A DNA stretch of 64,000 bases from Nitrospiraceae bacterium (GCA_041748925.1 JBGTCI010000002.1:20086-84085), one strand, 5' to 3'; shown: positions 6,240 through 59,654, counted from the stretch's first letter. Notes: generated by a model from the letters alone, not told the origin. Numbers and translations are program-made.

Positions 6240-6365
6240 CAGGATGCTGAAAAATCCCGCCAGCGGCGTTCTCACCTCGAAAGCATCCTCAACGTAGCCC
6301 AGAGGCTACGCCTCCGGTGCTTTCATCGGCTGCGGCCTTGCTGATCGGTCTTTTTGAGCATCCTG
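6240..6365 (+). repeat. P125 palindromic element, copy A
   Basis: CAGGATGCTGAAAAA...TTTTTGAGCATCCTG, 126 nt. Starts immediately after the RND TAG stop (6237-6239). Centre is CCTCAACGTAGCC-loop-GGCTACGCCTCCGG. Confidence 0.9.
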
Positions 6366-6393
6366 TGAAAGCTCTGGGCAGAGCGGCTACAGA

Positions 6394-6726
6394 TCACCTG
6401 ACAGATGGAAAGAGCGCCTTCAGTTGCATCGCCAAGCCGATGTCCCCGCTGATCTTGAGCCGTCCGGACATGGCAACGGCTGGTCCACTCAACTGGCCCT
6501 TCAGAATCTTAATGCAATCCTCTCCCGCCATCGAGAGCACCACGTGCGGGTCCGCATGCATTCCTTCTACAACCTGGCAGGCTCCATCCCGGACTGTGAG
6601 AATGTACTGCCCGCCCTGCGCGCCGCTCAGATCGAATTGGTAAACCACATCAAGATCTTCGGCGGCATCTGCATTGAGCCGACCTGGGAGAAGCTGAAGA
6701 AACTCTTTGACAGTGGTGGGGTTCAT
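6394..6726 (-). CDS. SCP2 sterol-binding domain protein
   Basis: 110 aa. Pattern D..V.QF.L.G..GG.Y.L....G......G.....D....M...D...I..G.L....A.M.GRLKI.GD..LAM.L is typical of SCP-2. Confidence 0.75.
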   Translation of the reverse strand: MNPTTVKEFLQLLPGRLNADAAEDLDVVYQFDLSGAQGGQYILTVRDGACQVVEGMHADPHVVLSMAGEDCIKILKGQLSGPAVAMSGRLKISGDIGLAMQLKALFPSVR

Positions 6727-6874
6727 GGTTCGTGTGAAGGCGAGGACATCAAGCAGGATGCTGCAACAGTCCGCAAGCTTTCTGAAAATTTAAGACTCAG
6801 ACCAAGGCTGAGATTGCAAGAGTTTGGTCTTCGGTCAACACCTTGACCTCAACCTCAGTCTGGTCAAATCGATA

Positions 6875-6902
6875 CCGGGAGCCGCTGCCCCGCGGCTCCC
6901 GG
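6875..6902 (-). terminator. GC-rich hairpin 3' of the AdoMetDC-like gene
   Basis: CCGGGAGCCGC-tgcccc-GCGGCTCCCGG, an 11-bp stem starting 8 nt after stop 6910 on the minus strand. It is followed by a weak U-containing tract (UAUCGAUUU). Confidence 0.55.
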
Positions 6903-6909
6903 TCTCTTC

Positions 6910-7350
6910 CTAGTAACGGAGCGTGACCGTCGCGGCACTGCGACGCGCGCCGAAAAAGTCCTTGGAGAACGCCTCGACGACGGCAGGGTCATAGCCCTTG
7001 CAGCTGAAAATGTCGAGGTACGCGTTGTTCGTATCGTTCGCAAAATGGCCGCTGATCAACGAGGTCGAGATCAGCTGCACCATGGAATAACCCGCGACGC
7101 GGCCGGAGCCGAAATCGACGACCTGGCACTCGCCAAAACGCTTCATGTCGATAAGCTCGCAGAGCTCAACGACATAGCGGCGAATATGGTCGGCATTTCG
7201 AATCAGGTCGGGATGACAATCTTGGAGGTCGACGGCAGTGCACAGTCCCCACGCCTTCCCCTCACCCACCATTTCCTGGGGGGCAATGGAAGCAGCTACT
7301 GGGGACTCGGATGGAAAGATCGCGGACTCGGATTCAGGCGAGCTACTCAT
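6910..7350 (-). CDS. S-adenosylmethionine decarboxylase-related (SpeH/PF02675-like) protein, divergent
   Basis: 146 aa. Core VAGYSMVQLISTSLISGHFAND...YLDIFSCKG aligns to SpeH ...LIAESHISIHTWPE...VDVFTCG. The self-processing Glu-Ser site reads Thr-Ser here. Has a 35-aa N-terminal extension. Confidence 0.6.
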   Translation of the reverse strand: MSSSPESESAIFPSESPVAASIAPQEMVGEGKAWGLCTAVDLQDCHPDLIRNADHIRRYVVELCELIDMKRFGECQVVDFGSGRVAGYSMVQLISTSLISGHFANDTNNAYLDIFSCKGYDPAVVEAFSKDFFGARRSAATVTLRY

Positions 7351-7726: not shown

Positions 7727-7731
7727 AACTC

Positions 7732-7821
7732 GGTCTATCTGGTCTATTCGGTCTGTCTCGTCTGTTTGGTGGAACAAAACTAACCAGATGAACCAGACAG
7801 ACTAGATAGACCGGATAGACC
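7732..7821. repeat. N9 nonamer-arm hairpin, copy 1
   Basis: Left arm GGTCTATCT GGTCTATTC GGTCTGTCT CGTCTGTTT, a short loop, then a right arm that is the imperfect reverse complement (...CAGACAGAC TAGATAGAC CGGATAGACC). Fills the gap between convergent stops at 7726 and 7837. Confidence 0.9.
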
Positions 7822-7836
7822 AAACGAACAAGACCG

Positions 7837-8160
7837 CTACCGGCGAGAAAAACTTGTTTGCACGTGATCGTCGAAGATATGGGAGAGTCGCTCCCTGTCC
7901 TCCGGACTGATCGAGGTGATCTTCGCTCCGAACTTCGGGGAACGCACGTGGATGACTTGCAGGCCACAGGTCAAGGTTCTCCCTTGCTCAAGTTCAATCA
8001 CGAGTTGGAGCGCATCGCCGCTTTTCACGAACAAGCGGCTTTCAATTCGAACGCCTGTCTCGCTGACATCCAAAACCTTGCACGGCGCCGAAAGGGCCCC
8101 TCGCTGCAGACGGCCGCCCCGGCTTACCTCGACACGTGACCCTTTTCGCTTAAACGCCAT
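7837..8160 (-). CDS. PilZ domain protein
   Basis: 107 aa with RKGSR (RxxxR) and DVSETGV (DxSxxG) motifs. Confidence 0.75.
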   Translation of the reverse strand: MAFKRKGSRVEVSRGGRLQRGALSAPCKVLDVSETGVRIESRLFVKSGDALQLVIELEQGRTLTCGLQVIHVRSPKFGAKITSISPEDRERLSHIFDDHVQTSFSRR

Positions 8161-10127: not shown

Positions 10128-10255
10128 GGAGTCTAAACTTCAGGATATTCGTAGGATTGTCAAACAAAGAGGAGAAAGCGGGCGGCGCAAAACGATCGTG
10201 TACCGAGACCCCCAATCCCCACGCGTGTAATGCAACAGGAGAATCGTCCCACGAA

Positions 10256-10484
10256 CGGCTCAAAACTATCATCCTTCTCACCCGCCCAACCCTGGCGCGC
10301 CGAGACGCGCCTTGTCCCAAGCAAGGCCGCAGGAGAGAAATAACCGGAGGCGTACCCTCTGGGGCGCACGGTGCGACGAATAAGGAGCACCACGTCTGTG
10401 CGCGCCACCGAGTCGGTGAGGCGGCCGGGTCCCCGTTGAGGATTATTTTGACCCGAGAACGAAGTTGGGGATAGTTTTCAGCCG
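10256..10484 (-). repeat. P125 element, copy I, with two nested insertions
   Basis: Termini CGGCTCAAAACTATC / GATAGTTTTCAGCCG. Conserved GGCCGCAG, GGAGGCGTACCC and GTTGAGGAT...GAGAACGAAG blocks. Carries the TTCTCACCCGCCCAACC module at about 10275-10312 and an extra insert in the apical loop. Ends 4 nt before stop 10489. Confidence 0.8.
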
Positions 10485-10488
10485 GGCG

Positions 10489-11550
10489 CTAGACGAAAGG
10501 AAGGAGCGGTGCATACACCACCGAACACCCAATCACCCGTTCCAACCAGGGAGCCATGAGATCTTCGTTCAGCGGGGCTCGGTTCAGACGGGCCTCAATG
10601 TGAAATCCAGCCTCGTTGCCGACGATCCCGATGATGGCGGAGGCATCCTCCGCATCTGGAAGCAATTCCCGTGTTTGAAACTCACAGAGGGTACTGTAGA
10701 GGCGGCCGTCAGGATTGATCACAGATCGAATCTCCGGCAAGTCGTCGAGCGGACAATGCACCGAACAGCGATAGACGGAGCGGGCGGTGGGTTCAAGCGC
10801 TTGAAAGTCGCCGAGCGCGTCCTCTGAGAAGCCCGTGAGGTAGGCACGGACGCTCGCTGGCCCCGGCGCAGAGGTCTCGGCCAATTTGCTGGCCGGCACC
10901 AGGAACTCGTAGGCGTCCGCCGTGTTGTATTCAAACTGACAGGGGCCAAAGGCATCAGGCCATGAGCAGAAGAAGGGCACGGAGGGATCGACAGGACGCA
11001 GCACTAACTGCAGCTTCTCGACCAATGTCTCGATAGGAAGCTCCAAGAGCGTGATCGCTTCGAGAAACGCCGTGCGCCGCTCCTCCAGCCACTGCACCCG
11101 CTCGGCATCGCCGCGCGTCTCGCCGGGGGTGATGACCTCTCTCGTTTGGAGCCGTACACGGATGAACGAATGGGCATGGCGAAATCCCAGCCAGAACATA
11201 CTGCGGGGATCGTGGAGCTGTAACGGATCGCGAATGCGCCAGGGATGGCTAATCGAGCAGTAGGTGCCCACATCCTGATAACGCTGATACACCGTGTGGT
11301 AGGCCCCGGCCAGGAGAAAAAAATCGCCCTGCCAACCCTCTCGGACGTGGATCAGGGTGACATCTTCCGTGGACCACGCGTCTAGCTGGTCAAAATCCTC
11401 AGGAGACTCGATTGTCCATTCTTCGACATAACAGATCACGTCCTTCGCAGGCACCGCCGGCTTCAACCCCAACGCAGCCAACCGTTCGCCCACGGCGAGC
11501 ACCTGACCGAAGGTCAGCGGGGTCGTCGTTTCCCAACGACGTTCACGCAC
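10489..11550 (-). CDS. Hypothetical protein
   Basis: 353-aa ORF with coding-like composition and no domain I recognise. Confidence 0.65.
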   Translation of the reverse strand: MRERRWETTTPLTFGQVLAVGERLAALGLKPAVPAKDVICYVEEWTIESPEDFDQLDAWSTEDVTLIHVREGWQGDFFLLAGAYHTVYQRYQDVGTYCSISHPWRIRDPLQLHDPRSMFWLGFRHAHSFIRVRLQTREVITPGETRGDAERVQWLEERRTAFLEAITLLELPIETLVEKLQLVLRPVDPSVPFFCSWPDAFGPCQFEYNTADAYEFLVPASKLAETSAPGPASVRAYLTGFSEDALGDFQALEPTARSVYRCSVHCPLDDLPEIRSVINPDGRLYSTLCEFQTRELLPDAEDASAIIGIVGNEAGFHIEARLNRAPLNEDLMAPWLERVIGCSVVYAPLLPFV

Positions 11551-13806: not shown

Positions 13807-13828
13807 CGACCGTCCTCACACCGAAATA

Positions 13829-13963
13829 GGTTGTCTGTCTGGTCCATCTGGTCTGTCTGGTTTCTCTGATTACTTCGTCGAGTTAGTCTGGTTTAATCCG
13901 ATAAACTACCCAATTAAACGAGATAGACCAGATAGACCGAACAGACCAGATAGACCAAATAAA
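13829..13963. repeat. N9 nonamer-arm hairpin, copy 2
   Basis: Left arm GGTTGTCTGTCTGGTCCATCTGGTCTGTCTGG, about 55 nt of central sequence, right arm AGATAGACCAGATAGACCGAACAGACCAGATAGACC. Right end lies 9 nt from stop 13973 (minus-strand gene). Confidence 0.85.
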
Positions 13964-13972
13964 CACGCCTGC

Positions 13973-14308
13973 CTAGATCGCCCAAAGGGCAACCATCACC
14001 AACGCGCCGATTACATAAGGAAGCGCGCATGAATAGAGCAGCGCCGACCACGCGCGGCCCGGTGCCGCATTGCGCGACAATTGTTCCTTGTAGACGAATT
14101 CACGGGAGAGAATCAGCACCGTGAGCGTCAAGGCCAACGTCCGACTTGTCTGCGACCAGGTGTAGGAGCCGCCGATGATGTAATTCGCTGTGAAAAATCC
14201 AGTGAAGAGGAGAATCAGTGGTGCCAGAACGAACCGGACTGACTCGGAAAAGAAGGTGTGCCAACCAAGACGGGCTTCCACCGGGCTTGATTGTGAATGG
14301 GGAGTCAC
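13973..14308 (-). CDS. Small membrane protein (hypothetical)
   Basis: Three predicted TM helices. I place the start at GTG 14308, which overlaps the upstream TGA (GTGA), rather than at the track's ATG 14386. Confidence 0.5.
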   Translation of the reverse strand: MTPHSQSSPVEARLGWHTFFSESVRFVLAPLILLFTGFFTANYIIGGSYTWSQTSRTLALTLTVLILSREFVYKEQLSRNAAPGRAWSALLYSCALPYVIGALVMVALWAI

Positions 14309-14717: not shown

Positions 14718-14843
14718 CCCTCCAAGCTTGCTCGTTTTTTCTCTAGGGATGGGGGCTGATTGATCTTCTACTGCGCGCGTCCAACGAGGGCCTTCCGAGG
14801 CCGCGCGTTGCGCGAGCACAGAAGATCATCAGGCTCCATCCCC
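14718..14843. repeat. T-family GC-rich palindromic element, copy T1
   Basis: About 125 nt, homologous to 52990-53114. GGGATGGGGGCTGATTGATCTTCTACTGCGCGCG pairs with CGCGCGTTGCGCGAGCACAGAAGATCATCAGGCTCCATCCCC. Apical GGCCTTCCGAGGCC. A half-copy of T3 lies at 14673-14704. Confidence 0.85.
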
Positions 14844-15822: not shown

Positions 15823-15921
15823 TCGTGAAACGTATCTCGTGAAGCGCATGATCGCTCATCTTGACAACCAATCCCAATCCCAACGTTTCACGCTTCACGT
15901 TTCACGCTTCACGTCTTCATC
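15823..15921 (+). repeat. Heptamer-arm hairpin (GTGAAA/TTTCAC type) between ispA and the HpnA-like gene
   Basis: Left arm CGTGAAACGTATCTCGTGAAGCG. Right arm CGTTTCACGCTTCACGTTTCACGCTTCACG, followed by TCTTCATC, which directly abuts ATG 15922. Confidence 0.75.
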
Positions 15922-16905
15922 ATGAAGGTCCTCGTCACTGGCGCAACCGGATTTGTCGGCGGTGCGGTGGTACGCGCGCTGGTCCACCGCGGCATCGACG
16001 TCCGCGTTCTGGCCCGTGCCGGAGCAGACCTCCGGAATCTTGAAGGACTGACCGTCGAACGGGTCGAAGGCGATCTGCGCGATCAAACCTCGTTGCGCAA
16101 ATCGCTCGCCGGCTGCCGACAGCTCTACCATATCGCGGCGCACTATGCGCTCTGGGCCAAAGATCCGGCGATCTTTTATGACGTCAACGTTACCGGCACA
16201 AAGAATCTCCTGGAAGCGGCCCGCGAGGCCGGCACCGAACGGATCGTCTACTGCAGCACCATTGGCGCGATCGGCCTTCCGCCCGGCGGAGGGCTCGGCA
16301 CGGAAGAAACGCCCGTCTCACTCGAACAGATGGCCGGCCACTACAAACGGTCAAAGTACCTGGCCGAGCAAGAAGTCTTCACGCTCGCAAAGGCAGGGCT
16401 GCCGGTCGTCATCGTGAACCCCAGTGCCCCGGTCGGCGCCAGCGACGTGAAACCGACCCCGACGGGGCAGGTCATCGTAGATTTCATGAAGGGCCGCATG
16501 CCGGCCTATATCGAAACCGGGATGAACATCGTGGACGTGGATGACGTCGCCGCCGGCCATCTGCTCGCGATGGAGAAGGGCCGGATCGGCGAGCGATACA
16601 TCCTGGGGAATAAGAACTTGATGTTGCGCGAAGTGTTTGAGATCTTGAGCCGCCTGACCGGCATCAACGCGCCCTCGATCAAGTTGCCGCGATTGGCAAT
16701 TTTGCCTCTGGCCTATCTCAATCTCTGTATGGCGAACATCACAGGGCACCCACCGCGTATTCCACTGGAAGGGGTGAAAATGGCCAAATACAAGATGCAC
16801 TATGATTGCAGCAAAGCGATCAGAGAGCTCGGCATCCCACAAACACCGCCGGAAGTGGCGTTAGAGAAAGCGGTGAGGTGGTTCCGAGATCATGGCTATG
16901 CATAA
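15922..16905 (+). CDS. NAD-dependent epimerase/dehydratase, HpnA-like (hopanoid-associated sugar epimerase family)
   Basis: 327 aa. Rossmann motif VTGATGFVGGAVV. Overall resemblance to the HpnA family (LRNLEGL.VE.VEGDL.D..SL, Y..SK catalytic pair) from memory. Confidence 0.7.
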   Translation: MKVLVTGATGFVGGAVVRALVHRGIDVRVLARAGADLRNLEGLTVERVEGDLRDQTSLRKSLAGCRQLYHIAAHYALWAKDPAIFYDVNVTGTKNLLEAAREAGTERIVYCSTIGAIGLPPGGGLGTEETPVSLEQMAGHYKRSKYLAEQEVFTLAKAGLPVVIVNPSAPVGASDVKPTPTGQVIVDFMKGRMPAYIETGMNIVDVDDVAAGHLLAMEKGRIGERYILGNKNLMLREVFEILSRLTGINAPSIKLPRLAILPLAYLNLCMANITGHPPRIPLEGVKMAKYKMHYDCSKAIRELGIPQTPPEVALEKAVRWFRDHGYA

Positions 16906-18448: not shown

Positions 18449-18528
18449 TCTGGTTTATTTTGTTTATCTGGCTTGTTTGGTTCATCTCGTTAATCTTCCA
18501 ACGAAACAAACCAACCAAACCAACAACG
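18449..18528. repeat. N9-type hairpin, copy 3 (GGTTTRT variant)
   Basis: Starts the nucleotide after the cytochrome c stop. Left arm GGTTTATTTTGTTTATCTGGCTTGTTTGGTTCATCTCGTT. Right arm AACGAAACAAACCAACCAAACCAACAACG. Confidence 0.8.
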
Positions 18529-18954: not shown

Positions 18955-19359
18955 ATGCGCGCAGCGATCATTCGAGTCCTGATCACGGGGATCGCGGTCT
19001 TTCTGGCAGTCATGATCGTGCCCGGCCTTCAGGTCGACTCGTTCCTCGCCGGAATCGCCGTGGTCCTGGTGCTCACAATTCTGAACCTCTTGGTCCGGCC
19101 CATTCTCCTGATGCTGACCCTTCCCTTGATCGTCCTCTCGTTGGGGCTCTTTCTCATTGTGGTCAACGCGCTCCTTCTGGAATTGACCGCATACCTGGTC
19201 ACGGGATTTTCGGTCACGGGATTCTGGCCGGCAGTCGGCGGCTCAGTCGTAATCAGTCTGGTCACCATGATCCTCAACATATGGACCTCTGACCGCCCCC
19301 CGACGGAACGTCCTTCGTTTCCCCAACGCCCGCCCAAGATCATCAACCCCGACGAATAA
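18955..19359 (+). CDS. Phage holin family protein (PF04020, YvlD-like membrane protein)
   Basis: 134 aa. VPG..V.SF..A...VLVL..LN.L.RPIL..LTLP......LGLF..VVNA..L pattern is typical of this family. Four TM helices. Confidence 0.75.
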   Translation: MRAAIIRVLITGIAVFLAVMIVPGLQVDSFLAGIAVVLVLTILNLLVRPILLMLTLPLIVLSLGLFLIVVNALLLELTAYLVTGFSVTGFWPAVGGSVVISLVTMILNIWTSDRPPTERPSFPQRPPKIINPDE

Positions 19360-19366
19360 CGAGACC

Positions 19367-19493
19367 CTGTCTGTCTCGTCTATCCGGTCTGTCTGGTCTA
19401 TTCAGTCTGTTCGGTCTATCTTGTGTGTTTCTTTCAACGAAACTGACCAGAGCACCAGATAGACTAGATAGACAAGACAAACCAGATAGACCC
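19367..19493. repeat. N9 nonamer-arm hairpin, copy 4
   Basis: CTGTCTGTCTCGTCTATCCGGTCTGTCTGGTCTATTCAGTCTGTTCGGTCTATC ... CCAGATAGACTAGATAGACAAGACAAACCAGATAGACC. Begins 8 nt after stop 19359. Confidence 0.9.
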
Positions 19494-19531
19494 AGTCTGC
19501 TGTTCCTTTTCATTGAATTGCTCACCCTGCG

Positions 19532-21385: not shown

Positions 21386-21405
21386 GCCTAGCCTCACGTC
21401 TAATT

Positions 21406-21450
21406 GGTGTGTTTGATTTATCTTGTTTATTTGGTTGAGCCAGACAGACC
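21406..21450. repeat. N9-type repeat, copy 5 (truncated)
   Basis: GGTGTGTTTGATTTATCTTGTTTATTTGGTTGAGCCAGACAGACC. The left arm is complete, but only about 12 nt of right arm remain. Lies 20 nt after stop 21385. Confidence 0.6.
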
Positions 21451-21523
21451 GGGCTTGTGCCGCTCGTGCGAACCATCAAAGTTCTAGCGTGGCACAATAG
21501 TTTTCCCGCAGCCTGCTCGTCAC

Positions 21524-21668
21524 GGGAGGGTGGTCTGCTTGGTCTCCACTACGCGCGGCTTTCTCACCCTCCCACCCACTGGCACGCCGAGACGTGCCAT
21601 TAGCCCGAGCGAGGGCCTTCGGAAGCCGCGCGTTGCGCGAGCAAAAGAGGACAACGGGCCACCCTCCC
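21524..21668. repeat. T-family palindromic element, copy T4, with nested module
   Basis: GGGAGGGTGGTC...ACTACGCGCG // CGCGCGTTGCGCGAGCA...GGGCCACCCTCCC. The TTCTCACCCTCCCACCC + TGGCACG-CCGAGA-CGTGCCA module is inserted at 21561-21612. Confidence 0.8.
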
Positions 21669-22780: not shown

Positions 22781-22794
22781 TTGGCTTCCCTATA

Positions 22795-22916
22795 GACCGC
22801 TCAAAATGATCTTCCAACAAGGCCACAGGCGAAGAAAGCACCGGAGGCGTACCCGCTGGGGTACGTTGAGGATGCTTTCGAGACGAGAACGCAGTTGGAA
22901 GTCATTTTCAGCGGTC
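22795..22916 (-). repeat. P125 element, copy B
   Basis: GACCGCTCAAAATGA...GGAGGCGTACCC-gctg-GGGTACGTTGAGGAT...TCATTTTCAGCGGTC. Its outer stem differs from other copies but remains self-complementary. Ends 2 nt from the TBDR stop (TAG TAG ACCGCTGAAAA on the minus strand). Confidence 0.9.
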
Positions 22917-22918
22917 TA

Positions 22919-39322: not shown

Positions 39323-39333
39323 CTCAATGACTC

Positions 39334-39429
39334 CTGTCTATCTGGTCTGTCTGGTCTATTTGGTCTATCTGGTTCGGTCCAAACTAGGAAACCAGACAGA
39401 CGAGATAGACCAGACAGACCAGATAGACC
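39334..39429. repeat. N9 nonamer-arm hairpin, copy 7
   Basis: CTGTCTATCT GGTCTGTCT GGTCTATTT GGTCTATCT GGTTCGGTC - loop - CCAGACAGACGAGATAGACCAGACAGACCAGATAGACC. Ends 2 nt from the pdxA stop (39432). Confidence 0.9.
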
Positions 39430-39431
39430 TA

Positions 39432-40469
39432 TCACCGTCTTTTGACTAACGTGGCGGCCAGCGTGATCGCCTCGACCAGACTACCGGGATCTGCGATGCC
39501 CTTCCCTACGATATCGAAGGCTGTTCCGTGATCGACCGAGGTACGGAGAATCGGCAGCCCCACCGTCAGGTTCACGCAGGTTCCGAAGGCGACAAGCTTT
39601 AAGGGAATGAGCCCTTGATCGTGGTACAGAGCCACCACACCATCGTATTCACCTCTTGCCGCCTTGCCAAATAGGGTATCAGCCGGCAAGGGATCGCTGG
39701 CGCGAATGCCCTGCGCTTGCGCCGCACGAGCCGCCGGGAGAATGACCCGCGCCTCTTCGTCGCCAAACAGTCCATGTTCTCCGGCATGAGGGTTCAACGC
39801 GGCAACACCGACTCTCGGTTTCTTAATTCCGAACAGATCCTTCAACGCCAGATGAGCCAGTCTGATGGCTTTCTCGACTTTGGCCTGGGTGAGAAGCGCC
39901 GGCAAGTCCTTGATCGCGACGTGGGTTGTCACAAACATGATTCGGAGCGGTCCGCCGATAATCATCATGCCGGACTCCTGTGTCTTGGTCAGGTCTGCCA
40001 GGAGTTCCGTATGGCCGGGGAAATGACAGCCGGCCATATTGATCGCTTCTTTGTTGATCGGCCCGGTGACGATTCCGTCAATGCAACCGAGTTGCGCAAG
40101 CTCCACGGCTTTCTTGATGAACAGGACGGACGCCGCTCCGGTTTCAATCGCCGCGACTCCTCGCGGGAAGCGTCCAAGCGGATGTTCGAGCGGGTCCAGC
40201 ACGGCGAGATGGTTCGGCCGAGGAGTCACCGTTTCGTGACCCTCCACACGAATCACGTTCAACTTGAGTTTTAAGTTCTTGACCGTCTGCTGCATAACCG
40301 GAAACGAGCCGATAATCAGCGCACGGCAAAGTCGTTGCACTTTTGCCACAGCCAACGCCTTCGCAATCACTTCAGGACCGATCCCAGCCGGATCTCCCAT
40401 GGTGATTCCAAGGAGCGGTTTGTCTTTCATCCTCGTCATGTTTTTCCTAACATTCATACCCTTCGCCAA
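39432..40469 (-). CDS. pdxA: 4-hydroxythreonine-4-phosphate dehydrogenase PdxA
   Basis: 345 aa. GDPAGIGPE, HTE.LA, and SVDHGTAFDI(A)GKG motifs. Confidence 0.9.
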   Translation of the reverse strand: MAKGMNVRKNMTRMKDKPLLGITMGDPAGIGPEVIAKALAVAKVQRLCRALIIGSFPVMQQTVKNLKLKLNVIRVEGHETVTPRPNHLAVLDPLEHPLGRFPRGVAAIETGAASVLFIKKAVELAQLGCIDGIVTGPINKEAINMAGCHFPGHTELLADLTKTQESGMMIIGGPLRIMFVTTHVAIKDLPALLTQAKVEKAIRLAHLALKDLFGIKKPRVGVAALNPHAGEHGLFGDEEARVILPAARAAQAQGIRASDPLPADTLFGKAARGEYDGVVALYHDQGLIPLKLVAFGTCVNLTVGLPILRTSVDHGTAFDIVGKGIADPGSLVEAITLAATLVKRR

Positions 40470-40481: not shown

Positions 40482-40605
40482 CAGGATGCTCAAAAAGGCC
40501 GTTCAGCGCGGCCGCAGCGAGCGAAGATCGGAGGCGTACCCTCAGGGGTACGTTGAGGATCTAAGCGATGCGAGAACAAAGCTGGCGGACTTTTTCAGCA
40601 TCCTG
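40482..40605 (-). repeat. P125 element, copy D
   Basis: 124 nt. CAGGATGCTCAAAAAGG...GGAGGCGTACCC-tcag-GGGTACGTTGAGGAT...CTTTTTCAGCATCCTG. Abuts the CaCA stop (TAA|CAGGATGCTGAAAAA on the minus strand). Confidence 0.9.
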
Positions 40606-47918: not shown

Positions 47919-48007
47919 GTCGGTCGGTTGTTTTGGTTTGTTTGGTTTGTCTCGTTCATTTGGTTGAACAAAACAAACCAGAGAAACCGGATAAACCAAA
48001 TAAACCA
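47919..48007. repeat. N9-type hairpin, copy 8 (GGTTTGT variant)
   Basis: GTCGGTCGGTTGTTTTGGTTTGTTTGGTTTGTCTCGTTCATTTGGTT - loop - AACAAACCAGAGAAACCGGATAAACCAAATAAACC. Ends 3 nt from stop 48011. Confidence 0.85.
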
Positions 48008-48010
48008 CAA

Positions 48011-49255
48011 TCACAGACGGGCTCCAAGCTCGCGCGCTAGCTCGCGCAAAAATGACGCGGCGTCCATCACCAGCCCAACAGCTTGAAAACTTCCTCGATC
48101 CGCGAGTTTCGTCGGGACGGCCGGATTGACATCGACGCAGACGGAAGGAATCGTGGCAGGCAACAAATTGCCCGTCGCCACTGCGTGCAGAGTCGAGGCG
48201 ACGAGCAAGGCGAGTCCGATACCGGAGATGGCTGCACGCATGGCTGCCTGGGCTTCCAGCGAATCCGTGATGACGCCGGGCAGCGGACCGTCGTCGCGGA
48301 TCGTGCCGGCCATGACGACCTGGACACCCCGCCTGACGCAGGCCGCCATAATTCCTGTTTTGATGACACCGGACCTGACTGCTGCTTCGATGCTGCCGAT
48401 GGCCCTGATCCGATTGATGGTTCGCAGATGGTGTTCATGCCCGTGCGGCACGACACGACCAGCCGCGTGCCCATACCCGAGGGATGTGCCGTAAAGATCG
48501 ACTTCCATATCATGGGCGGGCAAAGCGTTCCCGCAGAACAAGACATGGATGAATTCTTCATCGATGAGCCAGGTCAACGCCTCGCGCCCTCCTGCGTGAA
48601 CAATCGCCGGGCCTCCCGCTAGCAGCACCTTGCTCTCCGCTTTCCCCTCACGGAACCTTGTTCGCAACTGCACGAGACGCTTGGCGATGTCGCTGATGAC
48701 AAGTGCGTGGGGACGCTCGGACGAGACCTGCGATTCCATGAAGCTGAACACATCGCGGTCACGGGGCCGCTGGAGGGGAATCACCCGCACGCCGTCACGG
48801 CCGATTACAATCTGCTCTCCCCGCTTCACGTCTCCCATCGGTACGGTCCGAGCAGTCAGGCGCACGAGGTCTACACGAATCCCCAGATCCATCTCGATTC
48901 CCTCCACCTCCACCCACTGGTCACGCACTCGCACCTGAGTGGGCAAATGGGTTGTGGCGTAAAATTCGTCGGGGAAGATACCGTCAGAGGGCGCCGCACT
49001 CAGCCGGCAGTCCCGTTCACTTTCGACCGACGCACCGTGGGGTTGAATGGCATGGAGAATATCGCTGAGCAGTTTCCCGGACGAGGCCCGCACGACAATT
49101 CTGGCGCGCGACGGTTCCTCGCGAGTCTTACCGATTTGCATCTCCTGGAGGTCAAACGTCCCCCCCATCATCAGAATCGTGTCCAGCACCTTCGCCAAGA
49201 TCAACGAATCGATGATATGGCCCTGGAGCAAGACGGTTTCTTGGTCATGCGTCAT
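48011..49255 (-). CDS. LOR/SDH-conserved-region protein (TIGR00300 family)
   Basis: 414 aa. N-terminal LQGHIIDSLILAKVLD.I...GG.F is typical of TIGR00300 from memory. Homologous to the C-terminal part of cyanobacterial ArgZ. Confidence 0.7.
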   Translation of the reverse strand: MTHDQETVLLQGHIIDSLILAKVLDTILMMGGTFDLQEMQIGKTREEPSRARIVVRASSGKLLSDILHAIQPHGASVESERDCRLSAAPSDGIFPDEFYATTHLPTQVRVRDQWVEVEGIEMDLGIRVDLVRLTARTVPMGDVKRGEQIVIGRDGVRVIPLQRPRDRDVFSFMESQVSSERPHALVISDIAKRLVQLRTRFREGKAESKVLLAGGPAIVHAGGREALTWLIDEEFIHVLFCGNALPAHDMEVDLYGTSLGYGHAAGRVVPHGHEHHLRTINRIRAIGSIEAAVRSGVIKTGIMAACVRRGVQVVMAGTIRDDGPLPGVITDSLEAQAAMRAAISGIGLALLVASTLHAVATGNLLPATIPSVCVDVNPAVPTKLADRGSFQAVGLVMDAASFLRELARELGARL

Positions 49256-49351: not shown

Positions 49352-49521
49352 CAGGCTGCTCAAAATGCTCCGCTAGCGAGGCCGCAGGCGAGAAGAAACC
49401 GGAGGCGTAGCATTCTCACCCGCCCAACCCCGAGCTGTCTGAACAGCTCTTTTCCCGGGTCGGCTACGTTGAGGATTTCTTCGACCCGAGAACGAAGCTA
49501 GCGGACATTTTCAGCAGCCTG
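49352..49521 (-). repeat. P125 element, copy E, with nested module, overlapping the truD 3' end
   Basis: CAGGCTGCTCAAAATG...GGAGGCGTA[GCATTCTCACCCGCCCAACCCCGAGCTG-TCTGAA-CAGCTC...]TACGTTGAGGAT...CATTTTCAGCAGCCTG. The last 8 truD codons and its stop lie inside the right arm. Confidence 0.85.
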
Positions 49522-52788: not shown

Positions 52789-52948
52789 CAGGATGTCGAA
52801 AAAGTCTGCCAGCAATGCGGGGCCTGGTCGATCCTCGATTGCGCGCAACTTTCTCACCCGCCCACCCACTGGCAGATATTTTCACCTACCCTACCCTCCG
52901 ATGGCTTCGCAATCGATTTCCCGAGACGTGCCAGTAGCCCGAGCGAGC
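52789..52948 (+). repeat. Mosaic: P125 left-end fragment plus TTCTCACCC module split by a further insertion
   Basis: CAGGATGTCGAAAAAGTCTGCCAGC... then TTCTCACCCGCCCACCCACTGGCA[about 47-nt insert]GAGACGTGCCAGTAGCCCGAGCGAGC. Compare the uninterrupted copy at 21561-21612. Confidence 0.7.
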
Positions 52949-52989: not shown

Positions 52990-53114
52990 CCTTCCAAGCT
53001 TGCTCGTTCCCTCTCAGGGATGGGGGGTGATTGATCTCCTACTGCGCGCGTGCAACGAGGGGAGTCTTCGACCGCGCGTTGCGCGAGCACAGGAGATCAA
53101 TCAGTCTCCATCCC
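52990..53114. repeat. T-family palindromic element, copy T2
   Basis: CCTTCCAAGCTTGCTCGTTCCCTCTCAGGGATGGGGGGTGATTGATCTCCTACTGCGCGCG ... CGCGCGTTGCGCGAGCACAGGAGATCAATCAGTCTCCATCCC. Collinear with T1. Confidence 0.85.
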
Positions 53115-53156
53115 GCATTGTTCTGAGACCTAATTCCTTTTATCTCTCTTTAGGGG

Positions 53157-53243
53157 AGCGGCCAGGCTGCCCTTCACTGCGCGCATCGAACGAGGCCCTT
53201 CTCAGGGCGCGCGTTCTGCGAGCAAGAAGGGCACCCGGCCGCT
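53157..53243. repeat. T-family-related hairpin, T3
   Basis: GCGGCCAGGCTGCCCTTCACTGCGCGC-ATCGAACGAGGCCCTTCTCAGGGC-GCGCGTTCTGCGAGCAAGAAGGGCACCCGGCCGC. Its left half recurs at 14673-14704. Confidence 0.8.
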
Positions 53244-54513: not shown

Positions 54514-54517
54514 GGGC

Positions 54518-54639
54518 CTGTCTATCTGGTCTATTTGGTCTATCTGTGCGATGAGCAAAAAAGACAACCTCCGGTCCGGATTACCCGATCTATCTGATCA
54601 GTCAATTCAACCAAACAAACCAGACAGACCAAATAGACC
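54518..54639. repeat. N9 nonamer-arm hairpin, copy 9 (large central insert)
   Basis: CTGTCTATCT GGTCTATTT GGTCTATCT G ... about 70 nt ... AACCAAACAAACCAGACAGACCAAATAGACC. Fills the gap between convergent stops at 54513 and 54645. Confidence 0.85.
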
Positions 54640-54644
54640 GCCTG

Positions 54645-55505
54645 CTAGAGTCCACCTTCGCGACTATCGCACCCAAGGATCTCGATGAATTTCGTCAGGC
54701 GGGCCTTCTTGAGGGGGTCGTCGAGTTTGGCATAGATGGCCAAGAGGTTCTTGATCATGCGGGAGAGAATCGCGCGCACCGGACTTTCTTGAAGGTATTT
54801 CTCGTCGAATCCATAGCCGGCTTCCGTGAGAAACCGCTGGCAATTCTTCTCGGTCAGCAACGCCCCTCCGTTGAAACAATCGACGAAGACCTTGTAGCGG
54901 TCCGATTCGTACTTCACTAAGAAATGGCCCGGCATCCCGATCCCATGAACCGGAAGACCCAGCCGCTTGCCGACAAGGAGGTACACCGTCGAGAGGCTGA
55001 TCGGAATTCCCGTTCTCCGGTCGATCACACAGTTGAGATAACTATTTTCCAATTCATAATAATTCTTGGTGTTGCCCTTGAAGCCCTGCTCCGTAAAGAG
55101 ATACCGGTTCAACGTCTTGATCGTTTCCTCCCCCGAAGCTCGCGGACCAATCCGATCCTGCACTTCCTGCGCCATTTCATCGAGCTGTCGCGTGTACGAG
55201 GTGACGGTCAGGGAAGGATAGGCATACCGGGCAATCAGAAAGGCGCCTTGCTCCAGATCCATCGGACCATCCGGCAACGCCGCCAACTGCGTAAGTTCAT
55301 CTTCGAGACTTCCACCGCGGATTTCTTCAAGCACCGAGACAAGACGGTCGGCCATTTCCGGCTGTTCGATTTCCGCTTCCTGTAGCAGGGGAACCGCGGT
55401 GGAGCCGATGTCGATAAGTTTCCCGCTGATGGTCCGAACGATCTTCTCGTCCTCATCGGCCAGCAGCCGGATCAGCGCCCGGATTTGACTTTCGTTTGTC
55501 AGCAT
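54645..55505 (-). CDS. SirB1-like transglutaminase-fold/TPR protein with N-terminal HEAT-like region
   Basis: Start set at MLTNESQ (55505) because the track extension overlaps the permease gene. Core LN.YLF...GF.GN...YY...NS.LN.V...R.GIPISL...YL.V..RLGLP..G...PGHFLV. Confidence 0.7.
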   Translation of the reverse strand: MLTNESQIRALIRLLADEDEKIVRTISGKLIDIGSTAVPLLQEAEIEQPEMADRLVSVLEEIRGGSLEDELTQLAALPDGPMDLEQGAFLIARYAYPSLTVTSYTRQLDEMAQEVQDRIGPRASGEETIKTLNRYLFTEQGFKGNTKNYYELENSYLNCVIDRRTGIPISLSTVYLLVGKRLGLPVHGIGMPGHFLVKYESDRYKVFVDCFNGGALLTEKNCQRFLTEAGYGFDEKYLQESPVRAILSRMIKNLLAIYAKLDDPLKKARLTKFIEILGCDSREGGL

Positions 55506-57350: not shown

Positions 57351-58045
57351 CCCCAGCCCTTTGCGCCAGATTGATCGTGCATCATGAACTCGATGAGGTC
57401 ACTAAGACGGCGGGCTTGTTGGTGGAGACTGTCGGCCTCCAACAGAAACTGTTTTTCCAAGGGCGTACACTCCAGGTAGGTGGACAGGGTATTGACGACA
57501 ATCTCATCGCTGACTTCTTCCCGAAAAAGCTCCTGCCATGTGGGCACGTCATCGCGGGACCGGAGATAGGACTCCAGGATGGTGAACAGGCGCCGGCGGA
57601 CCGTGGGATCCAGCGACGCCCCTGTGCCTCGAACAGCGACAGAAATCGTGGCCTCACGATAGGGGTTATCGTACCACTCGCGTTCAATCTCAAACCGTTC
57701 CAGCCCTTGCAGCAGGATGTTGGATCGACCATCGGCCAGTGGCTGCACGCTCGCCAATCGACCGACACAGCCCATCGAGAACACGGGCGGATGACCATAA
57801 TAGTCCGTTTCCCATCCATCCTTGAGCAGGGCCATGCCGATGCACTGCCCGCTCATCGCCGCATCCGAGACCATAGCGCGGTAGCGCGGCTCGAAGATGT
57901 GCAGGGGGAGATAGGTCTTGGGGAACAGCACGAGATTTGGAAGCGGAAACACCGGAATCCTCGCGGGAATGGGAAACGGCATGACGCTGTCAGGCTGGTC
58001 TCGTTCGTGGTGCTCAGGCCCGTGATCGATCTGCATGGGGCTCAC
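57347..58045 (-). CDS. LON peptidase substrate-binding (LON N-terminal) domain protein
   Basis: 232 aa, GTG start. IPVFPLPN.VLFP...LPLHIFEPRYR.MV is typical of the stand-alone LON-N family. Stop overlaps the ATPase start. Confidence 0.8.
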   Translation of the reverse strand: MSPMQIDHGPEHHERDQPDSVMPFPIPARIPVFPLPNLVLFPKTYLPLHIFEPRYRAMVSDAAMSGQCIGMALLKDGWETDYYGHPPVFSMGCVGRLASVQPLADGRSNILLQGLERFEIEREWYDNPYREATISVAVRGTGASLDPTVRRRLFTILESYLRSRDDVPTWQELFREEVSDEIVVNTLSTYLECTPLEKQFLLEADSLHQQARRLSDLIEFMMHDQSGAKGWG

Positions 58046-58152
58046 GATAGCTGATGGTCGACAAAGTTGTCAACGGCGTGAGAGGGGCATCTTTCACCCA
58101 TCGAATTGACGAAAACCCGTATCAACACAGGAGATTTGTGCCGGCAGTCTAA

Positions 58153-58340
58153 CCCATATTATTCATGAACACTTCTGCTGCAATCGCCGATCCGCTACTA
58201 CGACGAGCCTTCGGCCGGCGGGCTCACCCCTCGGACCCTCACCGTACTGCACGAGTACGCATCGGGTCCTCACGGCTCCGCGCGCCGGTCTCGCGACGCG
58301 GGTCAGCGATTTCGCGACGAACCGTCATGAATAATGCGGG
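58153..58340. repeat. 188-bp long imperfect palindrome with AT-rich termini
   Basis: Termini CCCATATTATTCATGA / TCATGAATAATGCGGG. Internal arms also pair (GCAATCGCCGATCCGC vs GCGGGTCAGCGATTTCGC, GACCC..CGTACTGCACGAGTACG..GGGTC). Confidence 0.7.
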
Positions 58341-58398
58341 CTAAGCATGGTATAAGCGCACGAGACGATTCCCGTGCCTTACGGACCATCCATCACAC

Positions 58399-59532
58399 AT
58401 GTACGAATTGTTGCGTCAGCTTCGACACATACTGTTCCTGTCGAGCAGTCTGCTGATCGTCGTGCCAGGGCTCGCAGCCGATACCGCACAGGAATTCCGC
58501 TTCGCCACGGAAGGCTATCGATATGCCTTTCCGCGCGACCACGGGGCGCATGAGGAGTTTCGCACCGAATGGTGGTACTACACAGGTCAGGTCAGGGCGA
58601 AGGACGGTCGGCCATTCGGTTATGAACTCACCTTCTTCCGCCGTGGCATGCTGCGCGATCAGACGAAAACCCTGCCGTCACAGTGGGCTGTCACGCACCT
58701 CTATCTAGCCCATTTTGCCATCAGCGATCTCAGCAAGGGTCGGTTTCACTATGCGGACAAAATGAGCCGGGCCGGTTTGGGCAAGGCCGGCGCGGCGCAC
58801 GATCGGCTCCACGTCTGGATCGATCGATGGAGCGCCGAATCGCCATCGGTCGCTCCCGGCACTCAAACCCTCCAGGCAGCGGAGGGCGACATGGCCATCC
58901 AACTCACGGTTTCGTCGGGGAAACCACTGGTCGTACATGGCACCGACGGGATCAGCCGCAAAGGTTCGGCCACAGGACAAGCCTCCCATTATTATTCCTT
59001 CACCAGACTAGCCACAACCGGCAAGCTCACGATCGGGAACGAATCGTTCGACGTGACCGGCACAAGTTGGATGGACCATGAGTTCGGGTCCGCCGATCTC
59101 GATAAGGACCTGGTCGGATGGGACTGGTTCAGCCTGCAACTCGACGACCAAAGGGAACTCATGCTCTATCAACTCCGCCGGGCAGACGGATCGGCTCATC
59201 CAGCCTCAAGTGGCACGTTAATCGACCGAGACGGACGTGGACACCATCTTTTGATCGGAGACTTCACGCTCAAACCGACAAGTTATTGGACCAGCCCTGC
59301 GAGCAAAGCCCACTATCCGCAGCGTTGGCACTTGACCATTCCTTCACAACAACTTTCATTGGAACTCGTGCCCCGCATGGCCGATCAAGAACTCTCCCCC
59401 AAACGCAGCACACAAGTGGCCTATTGGGAAGGCGCCATCGAAACAACCGGCACAACACAGGGGAAGCCAATTCACGGACAGGGCTACATGGAACTGGTCG
59501 GCTATGCCGAACGGATCATGCAGAAACTCTAA
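58399..59532 (+). CDS. AttH/CrtC-like (carotenoid 1,2-hydratase / lipocalin-like) family protein
   Basis: 377 aa with a signal peptide. FP.DHG.H..F.TEWWY.TG.......G..FGYELTFFR and WMDHEFG motifs. Confidence 0.75.
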   Translation: MYELLRQLRHILFLSSSLLIVVPGLAADTAQEFRFATEGYRYAFPRDHGAHEEFRTEWWYYTGQVRAKDGRPFGYELTFFRRGMLRDQTKTLPSQWAVTHLYLAHFAISDLSKGRFHYADKMSRAGLGKAGAAHDRLHVWIDRWSAESPSVAPGTQTLQAAEGDMAIQLTVSSGKPLVVHGTDGISRKGSATGQASHYYSFTRLATTGKLTIGNESFDVTGTSWMDHEFGSADLDKDLVGWDWFSLQLDDQRELMLYQLRRADGSAHPASSGTLIDRDGRGHHLLIGDFTLKPTSYWTSPASKAHYPQRWHLTIPSQQLSLELVPRMADQELSPKRSTQVAYWEGAIETTGTTQGKPIHGQGYMELVGYAERIMQKL

Positions 59533-59654
59533 CAGGATGCTGAACAAGGCCGCCAGCGGCGTTCTCGCGTCGCTCAGAGGCTCAACGCACCGAAGCGTAC
59601 GCCTCGCCTCTCCGCTCGCTGCGGCCTTGCTGCACAGCCTTTTTGAGCATCCTG
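59533..59654 (+). repeat. P125 element, copy F
   Basis: 122 nt. Begins immediately after the TAA stop (TAA|CAGGATGCTGAACAAGG) and ends ...TTTTTGAGCATCCTG. Same orientation relative to its upstream gene as all other copies. Confidence 0.9.

Follow-up and report, generated by a model that had tools for sequence, protein, structure and literature searches.

A palindromic repeat flush with stop codons in Nitrospira is probably the hairpin of a MITE family that inserts at YTAR

The window, a stretch of 64,000 nucleotides from a Nitrospiraceae bacterium, carries seven full copies of a palindromic element, P125, together with pieces of the same family. The first-pass annotation had reported the seven copies and placed each of them at a stop codon; all seven are present, with a conserved core common to them, and each starts directly after, or over, a stop codon. 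The upstream genes are also those it had named, namely AcrB-type RND pump, TonB Plug, HalD-like oxygenase, Na/Ca exchanger, TruD and CrtC/AttH-like lipocalin. The copies and pieces are the following:

6240-6365, plus strand: c1, tail-less, beginning at the base after the TAG stop (6237-6239) that ends the AcrB-family pump gene
10179-10488, minus strand: c2, full-length element, its diverged 5' repeat CGCCCGGCTGAAAAC right after a TAG stop (10489-10491)
22793-22918, minus strand: c3, tail-less, beginning at the base after the TAG stop (22919-22921) that ends the TonB-dependent receptor gene
33860-34011, minus strand: c4, palindrome at 33887-34011, immediately following the TAG that ends the HalD-like gene
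40482-40605, minus strand: c5, tail-less, immediately following the TAA that ends the Na/Ca-exchanger gene
49352-49521, minus strand: c6, with a nested insert of ~46 nt at the apex and the 3' flank CTAG
59529-59734, plus strand: c7, complete element, its 5' flank CTAA (59529-59532) containing the TAA stop of the CrtC/AttH-like gene
21455-21515, plus strand: orphan tail of type A, distal 60 nt, ending in TTTTCCCGCAGCCTG
34804-34823, plus strand: solitary 5' terminal repeat CAGGATGCTGAAAAAGTCC, remainder of the element missing
52789-52815, plus strand: 5'-arm fragment CAGGATGTCGAAAAAGTCTGCCAGC, with TTAG before it and other repeat modules after it

Aligned to the family model, 6/7 window copies start exactly at +1 after the stop. 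The offset of 4 nt after TAG previously described at c2 disappears in this alignment, which shows a diverged outer repeat directly after the TAG, and at c3 the second TAG of a double TAG corresponds to family-model positions 1-3. As had been claimed, c6 includes the end of truD, namely its last 8 codons and its TAG. Six of the seven copies are located between same-direction genes and c1 between converging genes, the converging gene ending 28 nt past the c1 3' end. The alignment of the seven copies has 47 invariant columns, a 20-base gapped core pattern matches 6/7 copies (0 expected in shuffles), and each copy folds 3-9 SD better than shuffles. The outer stem of c3 is a variant, TAGACCGC/GCGGTCTA. 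The c2 palindrome extends as far as about 10256 and has two foreign modules nested in it; insertion in the apical loop, as reported earlier, is right for one of them, and the other lies in the 3' arm. The supposed palindrome fragment at about 21465-21516 belongs to a 76-nt tail module, present here as an orphan copy, which the earlier reading did not recognise; in place of a P125 palindrome, half of a 9-nt-period array (21395-21450) is attached to it.

P125 is not the whole element. Complete copies are 197-201 bp long and consist, in order, of a 5' terminal repeat CAGGMTGCKGAAAAA, the imperfect palindrome of 122-126 bp, the 76-nt tail and a 3' terminal repeat inverse to the 5' one. The conserved 3' tail, found in about one third of 131 copies and in two sequence types, ends in TTTTTCCGCAGCCTG, followed by YTAR. 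The terminal repeats are inverted, the 5' end CAGGATGCTGAAAAAG and the reverse complement of the tail end CAGGCTGCGGAAAAAC being 13/16 identical. In c7 the palindrome (59533-59654) is followed by a type B tail (59655-59730) ending in TTTTTCCGCAGCCTC and by the 3' flank CTTG (59731-59734). The tail of c2 (10255-10179) ends in GTTTTGCGCCGCCCG, an inverted match of its own diverged 5' end, so that both repeats have changed together; its 4-bp flanks are CTAG and CTTT. On the 3' side of c4 there is a truncated tail remnant, at about 33860-33886. The element has no coding capacity, since the ATG frame on the antisense strand reaches a stop after 22 codons in the median and changes as copy length varies (121-126 nt). 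About half of the copies have neither the tail nor a 3' duplication, and random deletion would predict a less sharp 3' boundary than they show. These tail-less copies are more diverged (identity to consensus 0.81 versus 0.88 for tailed copies; p = 5e-6) and older than the complete ones.

The flank logo before position 1 reads Y-T-A-R (CTAG, CTAA, TTAG, TTAA), with C or T at position -4 in 81% of copies and G in 9%. Identical 4-mers were seen on both sides of 13/33 full-length copies, and where both flanks are YTAR they are identical in 12/15 full-length copies, the chance rate being ~0.3 by a hand estimate. Among these pairs are the non-palindromic CTAA/CTAA, found in three independent copies, and TTAG/TTAG, as well as the non-YTAR pair CGAG/CGAG. 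Comparison of a filled site (GTTCGT-CTAG-[element]-CTTG-TCCTT in locus L040) with its empty counterpart (GTTCGT-CTTG-TCCTT in L020) confirmed the 4-bp duplication, because the empty site carries a single copy of the 4-mer; L095 is likewise empty at this position, and further filled/empty pairs were seen elsewhere. At the c5 site, four more distant relatives have no insertion, and L119 carries a different palindromic repeat there. IS5 duplicates 5'-YTAR-3' on insertion (PMC5009759), and the complete element displays the target signature reported for IS5. Terminal inverted repeats, YTAR duplications of 4 bp in complete copies and presence/absence differences between genomes bear out the MITE alternative of the first-pass annotation, which had placed the enzyme outside the window; the window indeed contains no transposase. 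A search of the loci for an autonomous element, using end-like pairs 0.9-2.5 kb apart, gave only P125 split by IS110, and the only transposase beside a copy is this unrelated IS110-family insertion. Neither an IS5-like transposase gene nor an autonomous element whose terminal repeats match turned up in the loci, and an IS5-type enzyme is therefore a tentative assignment, drawn from the duplication.

The tail-less copies lack this duplication, and one filled/empty pair of a tail-less copy shows none at all; one palindrome-only copy is flanked by a CCAG/CCAG duplication. We regard it as highly improbable that an HUH tyrosine transposase (REP/RAYT-like or IS200/IS605-like) mobilises the palindrome by itself, as single-stranded DNA, inserting it 3' of a short target (TAR) without duplication, with the tailed copies as a separate composite. 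Such a route would fit the tail-less copies that keep the 5' YTAR without a 3' duplication, the site TGGTAGG[P125]CGAGAG in L119 compared with TGGTAAG-CGAGAC in the window (no duplication), the strictly kept hairpin complementarity, the better folding of one strand than of the other, and the report that GTAG-headed REPs give TAG stops to flanking ORFs, the TAG of the head often being their stop codon (PMC3733652). However, the L119/window case is equally readable as a hairpin-guided precise deletion, and the matching variable 4-mers around complete copies, the empty site with one copy and the CCAG/CCAG duplication all argue against such a transposase. Moreover, 125 nt is far longer than a REP, and the tail-less copies, being the older ones, do not form a young class that amplifies separately; no HUH gene was noticed either, short of a systematic search for one.

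Genus-wide, TAG, TAA or TGA occupies positions -3 to -1 in 79/134 copies, of which only 55 are real gene ends according to a dicodon caller whose gene calls in the loci contain errors; TAG or TAA precedes about 24 copies where no gene ends. Complete copies contact a stop at the 5' duplication in 9 cases and at the 3' duplication in 6, and in tandem contexts their orientation is 18:12, so that full-length copies occur both ways and the strong orientation specificity of insertion suggested earlier does not hold. Contact with stop codons arises because the YTAR target contains TAG or TAA; the copies without a gene end and the contact at either end point to a target site, not to a stop-sensing function. 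Tail-less copies have a real stop at the 5' end in 38 cases and at the 3' end in 1, and a sense to antisense ratio of 36:9 in tandem contexts. The rule that the GCTGAAAA end faces the gene of the stop, stated from the window, stands there for 7/7 copies and weakens genus-wide to 60:26, about 70:30; it is carried by the older, tail-less copies. This orientation bias is not explained by the target site. The stop-associated share amounts to ~20% of non-coding plus stop YTAR sites versus 45% of full-length copies, with stops ~2.3-fold over-represented even among young copies. The neighbouring gene points away in 41/128 copies, and some copies lie 13 nt upstream of a start codon.

Paired cells make up 91.7% of the hairpin alignment, and 159 cells are compensatory (versus 35 in shuffles and 18-42 in slid controls), in agreement with the earlier statement that the stems differ between copies yet stay complementary. 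Orthologous copies are 95-97% identical, flanks 63-86%, and in 5/8 orthologous pairs the hairpin is better conserved than the neighbouring genes. Copy c4 and its ortholog (L119:9206-9330) share a private central sequence and differ only by two compensatory base-pair changes within 124 nt; their coding flanks are about 15% diverged and the tail remnant far more so (about two thirds of aligned bases identical, by eye). Loci L079 and L103 have common flanks and outer repeats and central segments from two different subfamilies, which indicates that gene conversion between copies occurs, and this could mimic purifying selection. That inter-copy conversion and arm-to-arm correction keep the copies alike and self-complementary without any function is, in our assessment, very unlikely. 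The L079/L103 mosaic favours it, as does the occurrence elsewhere of the c4/L119 compensatory variants (GTTG/GAAC) as subfamily types, but it accords poorly with the private centre and the two changed pairs of c4/L119 between much more diverged flanks and tail remnant; correction between the arms would not slow the rate at which pairs change, and the same consensus persists across species despite the divergence of the flanking genes. The invariant loop motifs and the in-situ conservation exceed the needs of a passive relic, and a secondary role for the hairpin is plausible because it outconserves the neighbouring genes in the 5/8 pairs. Selection on a transcribed 3'-end structure, the other alternative of the first-pass annotation, finds support only as regards the hairpin itself, in its compensatory changes and in-situ conservation.

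When the hairpin was considered as a terminator, the inner stem GNCCGCCAGC/GCTGGNCGGNC was found to be flanked by A5 and T4-5 and enclosed by a further 9-bp outer stem, spanning about 95 nt. A terminator scan flagged only a c5 sense-strand sub-hairpin with a T-run, and total matches were no more than in shuffles. Sense-strand mismatches are A.C in 158 cases and G.U in about 97, an excess that counts mildly against a sense-RNA reading, and the antisense strand folds 0-10 kcal/mol better than the sense strand. These data bear on the explanation that stop contact is itself functional, P125 being a cis-acting mRNA 3'-end structure of one orientation (terminator, 3'-exonuclease block or hairpin melted by the terminating ribosome) that is placed by selection and only delivered by mobility. 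We consider this unlikely. The window copies, 7/7 in sense at distance 0, the sense bias and one-sided contact of tail-less copies, the compensatory changes and a conservation exceeding that of neighbouring genes would all agree with it, as would the A5/T5 tracts around the inner stem, which resemble bidirectional terminators, the flagged c5 sub-hairpin, and the unrelated palindromic repeats that fill the same gene-end sites in other genomes. Against it stand the TAG/TAA before copies without a gene end, the complete, younger copies that meet stops at either end and in both orientations, the genes that point away or start 13 nt downstream, and the mismatch and folding preferences of the two strands. 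In addition, c5 is inserted between genes that are contiguous in relatives, where a strong terminator is unlikely to be tolerated.

All of the at least 118 stretches listed by a genome scan are Nitrospira-lineage records, and nhmmer found 136 full palindromes in those stretches and the window, where the density is 7 copies per 64 kb; among the matches listed, the family is restricted to Nitrospira and very abundant there. No match to P125 was found in plasmids or phages, nor to the full element by blastn against 5,426 complete E. coli genomes. Rfam covariance models gave no match at gathering score over the window and noise only around c1 and c7 (best E = 0.069, 16.5 bits versus a cut-off of 52). 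The initial view that the family has not been described is correct as far as Rfam and the searchable literature go. An integron attC site was rejected, given that the ends are CAGGATGC/GCATCCTG, not R''/R' core sites (RYYYAAC...GTTRRRY), and that the copies, instead of lying in a cassette array next to intI, are dispersed at distances of 4-12 kb, each following a housekeeping gene on one or the other strand.

The P125 family is probably an undescribed, ERIC-like MITE, the MITE class itself being known. ERIC or IRU, a 127-bp MITE of Enterobacteriaceae, is likewise an imperfect palindrome of ~125 bp with many intergenic copies, which often lie where genes end. Unusual conservation at orthologous sites has been reported for ERIC as well (Wilson and Sharp, 2006). 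ERIC has TIRs and is reported to be co-transcribed with genes and to alter upstream mRNA stability (PMC3184786); it has TA at both termini (PMC3184786), whereas the P125 duplication is a 4-bp YTAR and TA is missing from the 3' flank of tail-less copies. Identity with ERIC/IRU was rejected on the blastn search of E. coli and on the flanks, which gave neither sequence homology nor the terminal TA; P125 differs further in being found in Nitrospira only and in having a complete form with a 76-nt tail and a third terminal repeat. IS5 and IS5-derived MITEs share with P125 the 4-bp 5'-YTAR-3' duplication (PMC5009759) and a bias to non-coding DNA, a likeness that concerns target choice. GTAG-tagged REPs and REPINs (RAYT) resemble P125 in their palindromes, a TAG-containing tetranucleotide head and compensatory hairpin upkeep. 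They are 20-40 bp long and GTAG is part of the element, in contrast to the 125-200 bp of P125, whose YTAR is duplicated target DNA; with neither a palindrome of 20-40 bp nor its own GTAG or CGTC head, P125 does not fit the description of a REP/REPIN. Correia/NEMIS (Neisseria) and bcr1 (Bacillus cereus group) are, like P125, small TIR-bounded repeats with target duplications, that of Correia being TA. Both differ from P125 in sequence and host; they are co-transcribed with genes, and bcr1 duplicates 5 bp and keeps its RNA structure by compensatory changes (PMC3184786). The text consulted describes no stop-codon-containing target for either.

We conclude that P125 probably represents the long hairpin within a MITE (non-autonomous DNA transposon) whose family occurs in Nitrospira and inserts at YTAR. 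A putative transposase supplied in trans would insert the element into YTAR and duplicate 4 bp, as reported for IS5. Insertion exactly on a stop would leave frame and stop intact, because YTAR holds the TAG or TAA and one copy remains on each side, and insertions within genes or 5' control regions would be lost; the copies that survive would therefore be flush with a stop at their start or at the tail end. Over time the tail and the distal duplication may be deleted and the hairpin beside the stop kept, which could account for contact on one side only and for most of the orientation bias. As its conservation suggests, the retained hairpin may have been co-opted as a gene-end structure, for 3'-end protection or as a weak bidirectional terminator.

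A broader possibility, which we put forward tentatively and hold to be doubtful, is that Nitrospira builds its gene-end structures from mobile palindromes, as selected, interchangeable modules that lie flush with the stop and act on the transcript. The P125 hairpin may then be interchangeable with the unrelated 9-nt-period repeats and GC-rich palindromic repeats that replace it at orthologous sites, and the palindrome may also move alone, leaving no duplication. The invariant loop motifs (GTTCTC, CTCAACG, TACGCCTCC and CTGCGGCC) would be a putative binding site for a dedicated factor, and the role in the transcript would be 3'-end formation or protection, or an interplay with the terminating ribosome.

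The seven full copies of P125, a palindrome of about 125 bp, were all found where the first-pass annotation had placed them, and their alignment in a common orientation contains 47 invariant columns (GCTGAA.A, GTTCTC, CTCAACG, TACGC.TC, CTG.GGCC, and TTTTGAGC). A gapped pattern of the 5′ arm with 20 specified bases matched 6 of the 7 copies, compared to a shuffle expectation of none. Either strand forms a single long hairpin (z-scores of −3 to −9 in the seven copies), the antisense one being more stable by 0 to 10 kcal/mol. Complete copies carry in addition a 76-nt module at the 3′ side, the tail.

Full copies of P125 in the window
6240-6365 (+), c1
10179-10488 (−), c2: complete, with nested inserts; 5′ repeat diverged and matched by the repeat at its own tail end
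22793-22918 (−), c3
33860-34011 (−), c4: tail stump kept
40482-40605 (−), c5
49352-49521 (−), c6
59529-59734 (+), c7: complete element

Pfam bore out the upstream genes that had been named, which encode an AcrB-type pump, a TonB Plug protein, a HalD-like oxygenase, an Na/Ca exchanger, TruD, and a CrtC/AttH-like lipocalin. The reported contact with stop codons is real in the window, since 6 of the 7 copies begin at the base after a stop when aligned to the family profile, and the last eight codons and stop of truD indeed lie inside c6. Orientation relative to the upstream gene is identical in 7/7 copies, including c1 and c7, whose upstream genes are on the plus strand although most genes of the window lie on the minus strand. 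The 4-nt spacer after TAG described at c2 is a diverged outer repeat of the element, and the supposed fragment at 21465-21516 is an orphan tail (21455-21515). The second TAG at c3 is part of the stem.

We built an nhmmer profile on five of the window copies; it recovered the family adequately and gave 136 full palindromes in the window and 118 loci from other records. A core-pattern scan of one genome per prokaryotic species matched at least 118 stretches; among the matches listed, all came from Nitrospira, Nitrospiraceae, or Nitrospirota records or bins, Candidatus N. defluvii being one of the genomes. No Rfam family matched P125 at the gathering score or at permissive thresholds and no description of it was found in the searchable literature, in agreement with the earlier view that it is not a described family. 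Nothing similar was found in phage, plasmid, and E. coli collections, and two viral pattern matches were ruled out as unrelated coding sequence. From this distribution the window is Nitrospira DNA, with 57% G+C. Exact-protein look-ups for strain-level relatives gave no record for two proteins and a 2.8-kb contig for one. Gene calling used a dicodon model, trained on these sequences themselves, that makes some errors; a Slp-family outer-membrane lipoprotein gene (30815-31816, plus strand) was missed owing to an overlapping call, and its ortholog in the recovered stretch L119 has behind it a P125 copy that the window lacks. A small antisense protein, suggested by an RBS-like AGGAGAA in the tail and the ATG of CAGGATG, was ruled out because the reading frame runs for a median of 22 codons before a stop and is displaced between copies of different length.

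The conserved tail lies behind many palindromes and is of two sequence types. Its end, TTTTTCCGCAGCCTG, is the inverse of the 5′ end of the element, and beyond it stands again YTAR (CTAG, CTAA, TTAG, or TTAA), the same motif that the flank logo shows directly before the element. Tailed copies are 197 to 201 bp long with terminal inverted repeats of the CAGGMTGCKGAAAAA type. The flanking 4-mers are direct repeats, identical in 13/33 complete copies (among them CTAA/CTAA at three unrelated loci, TTAG/TTAG, TTAA/TTAA, and CGAG/CGAG), and where both flanks are YTAR they are identical in 12/15, compared to about 0.3 by chance in a hand calculation from flank base frequencies (binomial probability near 1e-4). 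The filled site in L040 reads GTTCGT-CTAG-(palindrome and tail)-CTTG-TCCTT, whereas the empty sites read GTTCGT-CTTG-TCCTT in L020 and GTTCGT-GTTG-TCCTT in L095, which settles the 4-bp duplication; the agreement is less clean in the filled/empty pairs L038 vs L079 and L111 vs L039. A TA duplication of the IS630/mariner type was ruled out by reading of the flanks. The duplication is the same as that of IS5, which has been reported to duplicate a 4-bp YTAR (PMC5009759).

End-like sequences were paired in search of an autonomous element, and the sole result was a P125 copy interrupted by an IS110 insertion. In this one case (L022:3029-4332) the insertion sequence lies between CTCGCC and TGCGGCC and encodes a 328-aa transposase (DEDD_Tnp_IS110 and Transposase_20 domains); the IS110 family is known to target repeats. 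Position 10 is G in both the 5′ repeat and the tail-end repeat and C in the internal repeat that closes the palindrome, hence an invariant G·G mismatch. This difference may explain the asymmetry noticed in the first-pass annotation and, more speculatively, could bar the transposase from the internal end.

The bases before the element are TAG in 51 copies, TAA in 25, and TGA in 3 (79/134), and only 55 of these 79 close a real ORF, so TAG/TAA accompanies the element and not only the genes. When tabulated, the distance to the stop was exactly 0 in about 50 copies with a co-oriented gene. Among complete copies, a gene's stop falls on the 5′ duplication in 9 and a converging gene has its stop in the 3′ duplication in 6, and stops are therefore contacted at both ends of the transposon; converging genes end 72 to 81 nt from the palindrome, i.e., at the tail end, in about ten copies. 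The contact has an ordinary cause, because the target itself contains TAG/TAA, regenerated on both sides, and insertion into YTAR at a stop is harmless. Stop sites represent about 20% of non-coding plus stop YTAR sites in a census outside the elements, compared to 45% of complete copies (15/33), a further 2.3-fold excess (binomial about 0.001, hand estimate) from which we infer that insertions in promoters and leaders were lost. TAG accounts for 32% of stop codons (281/869) in the window and L001-L118, which is high for 57% G+C, the value of the window, and may reflect the CTAG target in a sample biased to element neighbours.

The uniform orientation in the window did not extend to a general rule. 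Across the window and 118 loci, 87 copies share the direction of the gene on their GCTGAAAA side and 41 have that gene facing away, so that the bias amounts to about 70:30, or 60:26 when only tandem contexts are counted. Among 131 copies scored for tail state, the tail was full-length in about 45, truncated in 18, and undetectable in 68. The 5′ YTAR persists in tail-less copies, and a 3′ duplication of 3 to 5 nt at several offsets did not rise above permutation in them, with the exception of one copy with CCAG/CCAG (L079). A real stop lies at their 5′ end in 38 cases and at their 3′ end in 1, and their tandem sense:antisense ratio is 36:9 (p = 7e-5), compared to 18:12 for complete copies, a marginal difference (Fisher p = 0.07). 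The polarity first observed is carried by the tail-less copies.

Tail-less copies show lower identity than complete copies both to the consensus (0.81 vs 0.88; p = 5e-6) and to the nearest neighbour (0.92 vs 0.95; p = 9e-5), and on this sequence divergence they are the older. Complete copies would then be recent insertions that lose the tail and distal duplication by deletion over time, while the stop-side duplication could not be lost and the hairpin would be retained. Such erosion fits uneasily with tail breakpoints that cluster no more than about 15 nt from where the palindrome ends, and with L119, where TGGTAGG-(P125)-CGAGAG faces TGGTAAG-CGAGAC in the window, a tail-less copy with no duplication. 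This difference would be explained if the hairpin had guided a precise deletion in the lineage of the window; the alternative is a duplication-free mode of movement. The orientation bias of the old copies is a residual point of interest.

RNAalifold on a MAFFT alignment resolved the central structure poorly, as indels distinguish the subfamilies, and pairs were therefore counted only in the outer helices and apical stem, which are 91.7% paired in 109 distinct copies, with both-side changes at 18/29 pairs. The stems stay complementary, as had been noted in the window, with 159 compensatory cells compared to 35 in column shuffles (0/500 reach 159) and 18 to 42 in a slid-partner control. In 5 of the only eight ortholog pairs compared, the palindrome is better conserved than its flanks.

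Palindrome and flank identity in ortholog pairs
L034/L051: palindrome 95%, flank 85% (third codon positions 62%)
L029:2862/L116:4109: palindrome 97%, flanks 75% and 63%
L029:3764/L116:5010: palindrome 89%, flanks 76% and 59%

The four differences between c4 and the copy at L119:9206 make up two compensatory pairs. Identity is about 84.5% in the flanking genes, and the c4 tail stump is far more diverged, with about two thirds of aligned bases identical by eye. L079 and L103 share one common insertion yet hold central parts from two subfamilies, so conversion between copies occurs, which counts against a simple selection reading of the hairpin. Sense-strand mismatches are more often A·C (158) than G·U (about 97), and two invariant A·C pairs beside the apical stem are G·U on the antisense strand; these counts, which are not independent events, lean to the antisense strand and do not favour a sense-RNA hairpin. 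Conservation of the hairpin in situ is a second residual point of interest.

The inner stem is bordered by A5 and T5, like bidirectional terminators, and ahead of the sense-strand T-run a small GGCC hairpin can arise from the conserved CTGCGGCC; a terminator scan flagged this hairpin at c5. However, a strong terminator role is unlikely because an outer 9-bp stem encloses both runs and the genes either side of c5 are contiguous in four relatives (L121-L124). No outward-directed sigma-70 promoter was matched within or next to any copy, counts equalling those of shuffles. ERIC and REP-type repeats have been reported as hairpins that protect or process 3′ ends (PMC3184786), and a putative role of this kind is the most economical guess for P125.

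Palindromic arrays of 9-nt units, (GGTCTATCT)n facing (AGATAGACC)n, are a second abundant repeat at gene ends, and at four orthologous sites one genome has an array and another P125; the hybrid at L042:3621-3724 has an array core between P125 ends. That unrelated palindromic repeats take the place of P125 at corresponding gene ends in other genomes is a further residual point of interest. A third family, about 84 nt and GC-rich with core CGAGGGCCTTCGGAGGCCGCGCGTTGCGCGAGCA, has a copy in L126 that stands in place of most of the left arm in the P125 orthologous to c5. A module of about 45 nt that starts with TTCTCACCCGCCCAACC and contains GGCGCGCCGAGACGCGCC is nested at differing positions in several P125 copies and resembles a small element for which P125 is a frequent landing site. 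Short heptamer-like tandem repeats upstream of three genes bear no relation to P125 and are possibly a regulatory motif.

Other repeats
Window 7730-7838, 13821-13982, 18450-18523, 19351-19496, 21395-21450, 27751-27873, 39318-39446, 47927-48019, 54517-54647: 9-nt arrays
L081:3744; L001:5223: array/P125 exchange
L119:2384-2490 vs window c5: array/P125 exchange
L126:484-682 vs window 47927-48019: array/P125 exchange
Window 14745-14834, 21610-21659, 35653-35742, 53016-53105, 53151-53240; L126:8117-8300: third family
Window 10267-10320 (inside c2), 49405-49455 (c6 apex), 21553-21600, 52843-52870; L126:1494-1755, L040:2337-2503, L033:3584-3774: TTCTCACCCGCCCAACC module
Window 3020-3051, 15882-15927, 34891-34922: TTTCACG/CTTCACG tandem repeats

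The PdxA-like gene downstream of c5 (39432-40469) has a wholly different N-terminus among close relatives: its first codons are the 9-nt array in L119:2384-2560, and in L121-L124 hardly any spacer separates it from the exchanger gene that precedes it.

The element replaces the last codons of the upstream gene in at least three genes, namely truD (c6), a gene in L126, and the gene shared by L079 and L103. Out-of-frame insertions occur, and several genes read through to a TGA at element positions 9-11, as does the L126 gene, or further. Insertion a few codons before the original stop gives element-encoded C-terminal residues ending at the TGA of CAGGATGCTGA.

Replaced C-termini
L126:460-500 vs window 48020-48050
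L103:7270-7296 and L079:6015-6040 vs L076:3780-3825

P125 copies give rise to spurious antisense ORFs and to extended C-termini. The Logan contig SRR28170472_1918171 (L201, 2804 nt) carries exactly the gene upstream of c4 and ends about 60 nt beyond it, inside the P125 copy; the repeat breaks short-read assemblies. The frequency of P125 in the window, about 1 per 9 kb, is relevant to assembly and annotation.

P125 works like the ERIC, Correia, and bcr1-type MITEs. It differs from ERIC in the lack of homology and in a duplication that is not TA, and from REP in its size and in a head tetranucleotide that is target DNA; identity with attC sites was rejected. Together, these results show that P125 is an undescribed family of a known kind. 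A transposon with a stop codon in its duplicated target seems to "know" gene ends, which calls for caution with similar claims elsewhere. Nitrospira are the main nitrite oxidisers, including complete ammonia oxidisers, of soils, waters, and treatment plants, and we know of no genetic system in the group. If the hairpin has been co-opted, P125 would be a handle on how Nitrospira transcripts end.
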